Shown here: positions 56,465 to 57,770 of the stretch, one piece after another | Layout of the letters: every line of letters starts with the position of its first letter | Position numbering within the stretch: position 1 is the stretch's first letter | Source of the DNA: Chloroflexota bacterium | GTDB lineage: Bacteria > Chloroflexota > Dehalococcoidia > Lucifugimonadales > JADFKI01 | Direction: 5' to 3' | NCBI GenBank assembly: GCA_027623195.1 | Contig: JAQBUT010000017.1 | Coordinates: forward strand, 1 to 64,000 | Length of the DNA stretch: 64,000 bases | The notes under the pieces: generated by a model | The model's input: the letters and a program-made list of their open reading frames with translations, nothing else | Databases searched by the model: none | Told to the model about the DNA's origin: nothing | Made by a program: the position numbers and the translations under genes

Positions 56465-56587
56465 GTCGGCCTGACAGGTCTGGTATTGAACCGTCCGCTC
56501 GCATCTAAGGCGCCTTTTTAAGCGTTGCGGACACAGTAGCTGTTTGTTATATTTAATCGGGTGGTCGCCTTGGCCACCCGACCCGCT

Positions 56588-56638
56588 CGTGGGGCTGTAG
56601 CTCATCTGGGAGAGCGTCCCGATGGCGATCGGGAAGGC
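56588..56638 (+). repeat. Partial tRNA-Ala copy (5' part) with a substituted anticodon arm
   Basis: 29 bp identical to 56671-56699, then TCCCGATGGCGATCGGGA, then AGGC. Confidence 0.85.
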
Positions 56639-56673
56639 TCCGCGTTAACAACTTAGGCATCTTGCACATCCGT

Positions 56674-56749
56674 GGGGCTGTAGCTCATCTGGGAGAGCGC
56701 TTCAATGGCATTGAAGAGGCACGGGGTTCGAGTCCCCGCAGCTCCACCA
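56674..56749 (+). tRNA. tRNA-Ala (GGC)
   Basis: GGGGCTG/CAGCTCC acceptor stem with G3-U70, anticodon arm CTTCA-ATGGCAT-TGAAG, GGTTCGAGTCC, encoded CCA. Confidence 0.97.
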
Positions 56750-56760
56750 ATTTTTTCATC

Positions 56761-57006
56761 ATGTTCCATGTCTACGTTCTCAAAAGCGATTCAGCCAATC
56801 GCTACTACATAGGCTCCACTAAAGACCTAGCCCAGCGTCTCGACCAACACAACTCCGGTATGAGCAAATCAACTAGAGCCTACAGGCCATGGCGACTGGT
56901 TTATTCACAGGCCTTCGACACCCGTTCAGATGCCGTCCGCCGCGAAAAAGAAGTCAAGTCCTGGAAAAACCGGGCCTATCTCGAAAGCCAGCTTGACCTA
57001 GCCTAA
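56761..57006 (+). CDS. Stand-alone GIY-YIG nuclease family protein (81 aa)
   Basis: VYVLKS...YYIGST.DL..RL..HN.G..KST...RPW.L.Y...A..RE..VK. Confidence 0.9.
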   Translation: MFHVYVLKSDSANRYYIGSTKDLAQRLDQHNSGMSKSTRAYRPWRLVYSQAFDTRSDAVRREKEVKSWKNRAYLESQLDLA

Positions 57007-57007
57007 C

Positions 57008-57073
57008 GCCCATCTGGGAGAGCGTCCCGACGCGGCGGGAAGGCACGGGGTTCGAGTCCCCGCAGCTCCACCA
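57008..57073 (+). repeat. Partial tRNA-Ala copy (D loop to CCA) with a substituted anticodon arm
   Basis: CATCTGGGAGAGCG + TCCCGACGCGGCGGGA + 33 bp identical to the tRNA 3' end. Confidence 0.85.
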
Positions 57074-57257
57074 TTTCTCCATGTATTCAGCATAAACGTG
57101 CTCTACGATGGCGTTCTCGACAGCACGCCTTGACCCGCCCAATCCTCCCCTGCTAAACTCGCGCAACCCAAGTCATGGCCACGCCACTACAAACCCGTTC
57201 TTTCACAAGTATGGCCAGCCGGACAATCCAAAATATTCCAAAGCAGAGGACAAGAAA

Positions 57258-57770
57258 ATGACGACTGATATTCCTCATGAGGTGCATGGAGCGGAGCTGC
57301 CGGCGGGCGGCACCAAGCGCACCATGGTTGTGGACTGCGAGCATGTGGAAAAGATGCTGCACAAGGGCGTGCGGAACGACTTCACGATATTCTCCGACGA
57401 ACCGGAGCGCATGGGCGGCGATGACAACTATCCGCCACCGCTGACGTACATCGTCTCCGGCATAGGCTTCTGACTGCTAACCCAGTTGAAGCGGTACGCT
57501 ACAATGAAAAAACTTCCCATCGGCTCCGCAAAGGTCCACGTCGAGATGGACTACTACCTGTCGGGTTCCGTCCTGGCGGGCACGGTCAACAGCGGCGTCA
57601 CAGAGGTCCGCTCCGACTTCGAGGTCACGACGAGCGCTCCCGACGACGAGATACTGAACGTCATACGCATGGCCAAGCGCGGCTGCTTCGCCGAGCGTCT
57701 AGCGGAAACGGCGGTGCCCGTCCGAAGCACCCTGAAGCTGAACGGCCAGGAGGCGACGGACCGCCTCTAA
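57258..57770 (+). CDS. OsmC/Ohr-like protein, probable selenoprotein (UGA at codon 72)
   Basis: SDEP..MGG....P.P.......GF-UGA-L.TQ...YA...GCF; the two ORF-track fragments are in one frame; hairpin just downstream of the UGA. Confidence 0.75.
57486..57504 (+). promoter_or_regulatory. Candidate bacterial SECIS hairpin
   Basis: TTG-A-AGCG-GTA-CGCT-A-CAA; the loop starts with G about 21 nt after the UGA. Confidence 0.55.

Follow-up and report, generated by a model that had tools for sequence, protein, structure and literature searches.

The window, a 64,000-nt stretch of a contig from the Chloroflexota genome G000 (class Dehalococcoidia), carries at its tRNA-Ala(GGC) gene an insert of about 330 bp with a small nuclease gene, which lies between partial copies of that tRNA. 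The features of this locus, with a second cassette from the same genome in the last line, were as follows:

56557..56587, strand +: host tRNA leader with a GC hairpin, outside the element; G002 and the empty G004 have similar leaders ahead of the tRNA
56588..56641, strand +: copy (a), comprising tRNA nt 1-26, an 18-nt palindrome (56617-56634) replacing the anticodon arm, and AGGC
56642..56673, strand +: spacer of the 83-nt (a) unit, near-identical in G002
56674..56749, strand +: copy (b), the intact tRNA-Ala(GGC), single copy, 0 mismatches against the empty-site tRNA of G004
56761..57006, strand +: gene for P0001, a stand-alone Slx1-like GIY-YIG nuclease of 81 aa (PF01541, E 1.1e-19)
57008..57073, strand +: copy (c), comprising tRNA nt 10-26, a 16-nt palindrome (57025-57040), and nt 44-76 with CCA
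G000:C1:17100-17760 (L002), strand -: 5' tRNA-Asn copy with palindrome, GIY-YIG gene, intact tRNA-Asn(GTT) and a near-full copy

Both partial copies lacked exactly tRNA nt 27-43 and carried a TCCCG..CGGGA palindrome in their place. An earlier note on this DNA had described three related units, with the arm between the flanks replaced by such a hairpin in both partial copies, and this was confirmed; it had also reported a 17-nt arm swap, which is exact for the part that is gone, but the inserts measure 18 nt in (a) and 16 nt in (c). Within copy (a), 56591-56616 corresponds to tRNA nt 1-26, with three further shared upstream nucleotides from 56588, and AGGC corresponds to nt 44-47; the copy has no T arm, and its end is probably a remnant of the 3' acceptor strand left after loss of that arm. 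Copy (c) lacks the 5' acceptor strand, differs from tRNA nt 10-26 by one mismatch (57008-57024) and is identical to nt 44-76 over 33 nt. Its hairpin contains one mismatch in the window, which a 57035 G>T change removes in runs X2 and X3, making the palindrome perfect there.

The P0001 gene starts 11 nt past the tRNA, ends 1 nt ahead of copy (c) and is the sole ORF between (b) and (c), and the intact 81-aa frame claimed in the earlier note was thus borne out, as was its statement that no integrase or transposase is present (none among the 6 ORFs scanned around the locus). The flanking ORFs encode a luciferase-like monooxygenase and an OsmC-like protein. ARAGORN found one Ala-GGC gene in the genome, which is 87% complete. 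Rfam gave tRNA-like matches alone on the locus, all below gathering scores. A putative promoter upstream of the leader was judged by eye alone, and a sigma-70 scan called none there.

Several further observations were made in this genome. Past copy (c), at 57081-57110, a trailer similar to that of (b) leads into a short stretch, out of frame, that recalls the beginning of another GIY-YIG gene, possibly a relic of a longer array, a short and speculative match. The OsmC-like protein is split over two ORFs (57108-57770), the first of which stops at a TGA in frame with the second; given a tRNA-Sec in the genome, it may be a selenoprotein. Further partial tRNA or tmRNA copies without palindromes, including repeated 5' tRNA-Pro(CGG) copies, lie on contigs C11, C13, C5, C29, C35 and C16 and are probably ordinary island ends.

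Public read data argue that the locus is real. Contigs covering 56588-56699 and 56721-57070 (or 56739-57074) were recovered in 4/4 runs from 2 studies, and the contigs of these runs carry both the junction from (a) through the spacer to the tRNA and the junction from the tRNA through the gene to (c). An assembly artefact or chimera, which the earlier note had named as the outcome that would overturn its reading, is very improbable and was rejected on these junction contigs: contigs do break at the tRNA repeats, none of them reaches across the entire locus in the four runs, and the window probably holds a collapsed number of (a) copies, yet both junction-bearing pieces recur in every run, and the same layout is present in G027, a genome of 5 contigs, and in the cultured isolates L063 and L078. 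The contig over 56588-56699 had a depth of ~3x that of the unique flanks in X1, 2x in X2, 1x in X3 and 2.6x in X5, which suggests a collapsed tandem array of (a); the gene contig stood at 1x in X1, 2-3x in X2 and ~2.5x in X3. The opposite ratios in X1 and X3 therefore suggest independently varying tandem arrays of (a) and of gene units, contig depth not being itself a copy number. Across runs, 3/4 substitutions in the P0001 gene were synonymous. Six RNA runs contained 0.06 of the words, the exact spacer of copy (a) had 0 matches in metagenome_contigs, and viral_contigs gave 6 weak partial matches only (E 3e-6 or worse), so that no phage vehicle was found with this query.

The bare palindrome motif occurred 2 times in the window against 0.37 expected, a count reached in 5/100 shuffles. 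A genome-wide count of TCCCG..CGGGA, proposed in the earlier note, gave 10 against 4-11 in 4 Markov simulations. The bare count is thus modestly enriched only; the exact placement in two tRNA copies and the recurrence in homologs are not chance.

P0001 belongs to the GIY-YIG superfamily and within it to a stand-alone Slx1-like branch. Its 81 residues are GIY-YIG core throughout, with no extra domain, and the catalytic residues Y5, Y16, R26, H30 and E62 are present and kept in 85-88 of 88 clade members. The best PDB matches by both sequence and fold were UPF0213 and Slx1 (predicted model pLDDT 93.7), and no NCBIfam model matched over its cut-off (TIGR01453, 21.8 bits vs a cut-off of 56). The SRM-flanked protein from L191 shares 42% identity with P0001 over 71 aa. 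Phylogenetic analysis separated the P0001 clade (SH-aLRT 97) from a 15-member Ssn-like group (99), a label that derives from a C-terminal motif and one SRM match in a comparison made without SsnA itself; this placement points to a position of P0001 outside the cd10448 Ssn clade. Trees were built by quick search and FastTree, and the main tree has 85 columns, with most forks unresolved. L097 (a spurious match) and L099 (equal to L039) were left out of the 95 clade loci; trees were made without the fragments L039, L093, L095 and L096 and the short protein L118, and label tests also without L090 and L113.

Homologs of P0001 were routinely found at tRNA genes. Among 61 homologs in genome_contigs, spanning Chloroflexota, Bacteroidota, Patescibacteria, Ignavibacteria, KSB1 and others, 50 lay no more than 600 nt from a tRNA on the same strand, and for 46 the distance was at most 150 nt; among the 11 others, several run into a contig end and show tRNA ends by eye. 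The best 80 of 145 metagenome loci reduced to 70 distinct loci, 54 of them at a tRNA (29/32 among those with full flanks). The host-class search covered 301 genomes and gave 110 matches, and the 69 loci examined outside G000 comprised the P0001 clade (n=32), the Ssn-like group (n=15) and UPF0213-like genes (n=22). A same-strand tRNA within 600 nt was present at 31/32, 0/15 and 2/22 of these, respectively, twelve of the UPF0213-like loci (tblastn misses) being classed by motif only. Against a background adjacency of ~2%, the tRNA link is therefore a property of the P0001 clade and not of small GIY-YIG genes generally.

Two layouts were observed among 78 labelled loci, namely intact tRNA, gene and 3' copy (47) and 5' copy, gene and intact tRNA (31), and one tRNA copy was intact in every layout. 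A downstream palindrome copy was present in 38 of 43 distinct Ala loci, and an upstream copy as well in 6 of the 40 with enough flank, so the three-part form of the window recurs. The combined homolog set included 15 tRNA isotypes, and protein subclades track isotype: 38 isotype changes were counted on the protein tree vs 53.2 in shuffles (minimum 47), and 8 vs 21.4 within Dehalococcoidia. Kin are not independent, yet the signal holds inside this one class. For layout (5' or 3' copy), the tree signal was 16 vs 24.4 overall and absent within Dehalococcoidia (7 vs 9.0, with 22/300 shuffles as low). Single genomes of the host class carry several cassettes, and the protein of the second cassette of G000 is 41% identical to P0001, with a TCCGCC..GGCGGA palindrome in the anticodon arm and the T loop. 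Cultured, non-pathogenic Flavobacteria with the cassette are represented by L063 and L078, and cultured carriers include Salegentibacter tibetensis and Jejuia spongiicola. ARAGORN scored some palindrome copies as tRNA-Ala, Pro or Thr, so these cassettes explain a class of false tRNA calls. At L050, L051, L053, L059, L062, L064 and others, the GIY-YIG frame enters the following tRNA gene or copy and has its stop codon inside.

The palindrome itself was a recurrent neighbour of clade genes. Types CCCG(A/C), CCGCC and CTGCC lay within 300 nt of 62/95 clade genes vs 7.5 in shuffles, and with the tRNA association this upholds the expectation of the earlier note that homologs are routinely flanked by tRNA copies sharing a palindrome. 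The palindromes mostly replace nt 27-43 exactly, occur also in D arms, T arms and a terminator, and are common to several isotypes and phyla, with a fixed stem and a variable centre. The palindrome is not exclusive to the P0001 clade: loosely defined palindromes flank 6/15 Ssn-like genes (2.8 expected) and 3/10 UPF0213-like genes (0.9 expected). In its strict form it occurs 2 times in G000 (~3 Mb), once in the cassette, and 22-183 times in 10/61 genomes. The earlier note had called the palindrome REP-like, which fits its dispersal in some relatives (113 copies in G027 and 183 in G050) but not the 2 copies in G000. Of the 10 relatives with at least 20 palindromes, 4 yielded a clade gene, as did 3 of the 51 other genomes. 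A Y1 transposase was represented by one interrupted and one partial match in G060 and G050. In two of the high-copy genomes, G055 and G060, the palindrome lies in a hairpin beside an Ssn-like gene, which argues against a simple pairing with the clade gene.

Inspection of individual loci gave further examples. A CCCGAT..ATCGGG palindrome tips a hairpin flanking an Ssn-like gene, about 80 nt upstream (L198, L199), and an orphan TCCCGA..TCGGGA palindrome is intergenic and away from any tRNA (G000:C9:81073). In G027, the dispersed palindromes viewed (9 of 113; L173-L181) were modules of larger composite, BIME-like repeats. UPF0213-like genes (L124, L130, L148, L188, L189, L194-L197) were flanked by a hairpin repeat of their own with a CTGAGC..TCGAAGG core, which did not match the published SRM pattern in the 10 loci tested; gene and repeat form a putative third nuclease-hairpin pair.

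The presence of the cassette was patchy. Among 33 tRNA-Ala(GGC) loci of 32 relatives, 2 had the gene, 2 had gene-less palindrome copies and 29 had neither, as far as visible. As for the empty alleles that the earlier note had proposed to look for, empty sites are thus the rule in relatives (29/33), but no clean empty allele of the exact site was seen in the 4 runs; three weakly supported joints (side 29-30 nt) were not taken as such. Filled and empty sites have the same anticodon arm. The idea of the palindrome as an immunity mark carries little weight, since the tRNA next to the gene matches that of the empty relative G004 exactly. Two contigs of G002 (L168 and L034, on C140 and C143) share a near-identical leader, which enters an intact tRNA-Ala in one and copy (a) in the other; the two would be an empty and a filled allele or else members of a tandem pair. 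At L034, a probable recombinase element follows the tRNA.

Sequence comparison points to ongoing recombination. In G002, of the same genus, copy (a) keeps the stem but not the centre and matches that genome's own tRNA variant at nt 26/44, and in G059 one arm is a hybrid of a tRNA half and a palindrome half. The anticodon was retained in the palindrome centre in 8/31 copies vs 2.5 permuted; this list was hand-picked and includes related members, so its p of 0.0013 overstates the case. Tandem arrays were present in G027, G059, L040, L059 and L086. Both gene and palindrome are under purifying selection, as dN/dS was ~0.26 over 14 related Ala(TGC) loci and the palindrome p-distance in the same loci was 0.05 vs a pS of 0.26. 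Broken clade genes were also found (L036, L039, L118, L247). The 14 loci look largely orthologous, and the cassette would also appear to be inherited vertically for long periods; host benefit would therefore fit as well.

Our preferred reading, with a probability of roughly 0.55, is a selfish cassette whose nuclease would nick single-stranded DNA at the palindrome and which host recombination across tRNA homology would spread and amplify. The cassette would consist of one small Slx1-like GIY-YIG gene and a partial host-tRNA copy with a recognition hairpin as its anticodon arm. The enzyme would bind the TCCCG..CGGGA hairpin in single-stranded DNA and nick the tRNA-derived sequence next to it. 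The nicked copy would then undergo homologous recombination with an intact tRNA gene, which would insert or duplicate the unit at the anticodon arm, leaving one tRNA intact and yielding either tRNA, gene and 3' copy, as in (b)-gene-(c) here, or 5' copy, gene and tRNA. Repeated exchange could produce tandem arrays, gene-less copies like (a), hybrid arms and, in some hosts, the dispersed REP-like repeat, the partial copies being DNA by-products and targets rather than working tRNAs. We infer every enzymatic step by analogy with Ssn/NTS. According to passages of PMC11893778, SsnA of Neisseria binds the NTS hairpin as ssDNA and cuts a few bases upstream, the TCCCG/CGGGA stem is the core of NTS, and SLX1-like proteins are placed as the sister clade of Ssn; a palindrome-nicking nuclease is favoured because SsnA binds this core stem as ssDNA and its sister clade is SLX1-like. 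The minimal selfish tRNA-targeting element of the earlier note was upheld as minimal, integrase-free and tRNA-associated, and its nuclease-driven spread is something that we, too, infer.

Homing in the manner of SegB, in which the enzyme would cut the intact tRNA gene, or the point where this gene joins empty flanks, and the break would be repaired from the cassette allele while the swapped arm protects the copies, seems unlikely. SegB, a GIY-YIG enzyme, recognises a tRNA T-arm motif, homes and amplifies tRNA segments (passages of PMC2330249 and PMC13096335), and isotype tracking would fit recognition of tRNA sequence. However, the single-copy tRNA by the gene is unaltered and filled and empty sites share the same arm, so the copies protected under homing would be the dispensable ones. 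P0001, at 81 aa, also has no separate DNA-binding domain and is nearer to Slx1/UPF0213 than to I-TevI, and the palindrome spans isotypes and phyla and sits on D arms, T arms and a terminator as well.

We likewise consider it improbable that the palindrome is a mini-repeat in its own right, which a different enzyme places on hairpin tips and which survives only in redundant tRNA copies, with the nuclease gene brought to tRNAs by island traffic. The composite-repeat modules in G027 (9 of 113 viewed), the palindrome copies beside Ssn-like genes and the 6/10 high-copy relatives that gave no clade gene with this query would agree with such a passenger. Yet the strict motif occurs just twice in ~3 Mb of G000, where both clade genes have palindrome copies nonetheless, and Y1_Tnp/RAYT was not found in 3/5 high-copy genomes (G027, G045, G055). 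The passenger reading fails to account for the tRNA preference of the clade vs its sister clades, for the fixed 26|44 junctions and for the conserved palindrome. Little credence is given to a role at the RNA level or in host benefit, whether through tRNA-fragment transcripts acting as decoys that partner the nuclease or hold it back, through amplification of tRNA dosage, or in defence; the alternative in the earlier note, of tRNA-like RNAs partnering the nuclease, found no support here. All parts do lie on one strand behind a tRNA leader, palindromes of the Ala clade often measure 17 nt around a central TGC, such copies are called tRNA-Ala by ARAGORN (9 loci), and the cassette is stably kept (dN/dS 0.26). 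Against this, the copies vary freely in extent, number and position, (a) has no T arm and (c) no 5' acceptor strand, the centre varies while the stem is fixed, SsnA is inactive on RNA (passages of PMC11893778), and most relatives have no cassette.

With the palindrome-nicking selfish cassette as the preferred reading, it is possible, and we propose it tentatively, that these loci represent a new class of mobile element: ~330 bp with one 81-aa enzyme, targeting tRNA genes isotype by isotype without integrase or transposase, writing its palindrome on hairpin tips (tRNA arms, terminators, other repeats), at times with the old loop retained, and keeping an essential gene whole by half-duplication. 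Such a class might be the source of a REP-like family in Chloroflexota, Bacteroidota and Patescibacteria and a large pool of tiny hairpin-specific ssDNA nucleases. It would offer a role for a large bacterial Slx1-like group usually read as repair enzymes and, if true, would add candidate ssDNA nucleases of very small size and new specificity. The spread of Ssn/REP-type hairpins in the absence of a transposase becomes directly testable with an 81-aa enzyme, a defined 60-mer substrate and cultured carriers.

The cassette is real and recurrent, and it appears to be undescribed: no account of Slx1-like cassettes lodged at tRNA genes came up in the literature searched (subscription journals lay outside its scope), and the passages of PMC9897764 and bioRxiv 10.64898/2026.09.22.753630 contain no such cassette. 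The present analysis adds clade-specific controls, isotype tracking, selection estimates and population-level copy variation, together with the second cassette of the genome and the closest known system (Ssn/NTS, PMC11893778), both of which were missing from the earlier note.

Comparison with known systems set the cassette apart from several of them. REP/BIME elements with RAYT (TnpA-REP; GTAG and CGTC repeats) likewise are short dispersed palindromes, partly in composite repeats, tied to a small nuclease, according to passages of PMC3733652, in which 'GIY' does not occur and tRNA appears only in tRNA-acting enzymes. Unlike these, an HUH Y1 transposase was found neither in the cassette nor in the three high-copy genomes named above, and the cassette is not a RAYT/REP system. 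Stand-alone Slx1-like/UPF0213 proteins, which share the minimal GIY-YIG fold and are the best sequence and structure matches of P0001, are predicted repair enzymes whose parasitism is left as a question, with no link to tRNA genes, in the passages of PMC1564403. The UPF0213-like genes of the host class have a different repeat and are seldom at tRNAs (2/22). Integrase-driven islands at tRNA genes bracket their insert with an intact and a partial tRNA copy. Unlike them, the insert here is ~330 bp without integrase, the arm is replaced in the partial copy and both 5'-copy and 3'-copy layouts occur; the cassette is not an integrase island.

SegB, a free-standing homing endonuclease of phage that acts on dsDNA, recognises 27 bp with a T-arm motif and has no isotype preference (passages of PMC2330249 and PMC13096335), resembles the cassette in being a GIY-YIG gene among tRNA genes without an integrase. 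It drives spread and tandem amplification of tRNA segments, and a similar drive may operate here. Unlike SegB, the cassette gene is chromosomal and Slx1-like, its subclades track isotype, and palindrome-swapped copies are its hallmark. Homing endonucleases combine a catalytic and a separate DNA-binding domain, and P0001 has the former only; homing alleles resist through a disrupted target, and the adjacent tRNA is unaltered here, though the target could include flanking DNA. The cassette is not a canonical homing endonuclease.

The closest likeness is to Ssn (SsnA; cd10448; NTS/dRS3/SRM repeats), with which it shares a single-domain GIY-YIG protein of <100 aa, TCCCG..CGGGA-core palindromes flanking the gene, a repeat copy number that is very variable between genomes and the absence of a transposase (passages of PMC11893778). 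Ssn enzymes cleave ssDNA alone, at specific sequences. Unlike Ssn-like proteins, P0001 lies in a separate clade, probably the sister clade, and is without the C-terminal NPxWxDL-type extension. The SRM motif was found at 0/95 clade loci; its published pattern does recover L191 (both sides) and L160, yet misses 14/15 Ssn-like loci and is therefore insensitive in this lineage. The palindromes here are embedded in tRNA copies, unlike those of Ssn, and none of the Ssn-like genes here is at a tRNA (0/15); the word 'tRNA' is absent from the main text of PMC11893778 and occurs in gene annotations only in 12/14 supplementary files. By clade (a different one) and repeat (no SRM), the P0001 system is probably not an Ssn member, but it would work like Ssn/NTS.
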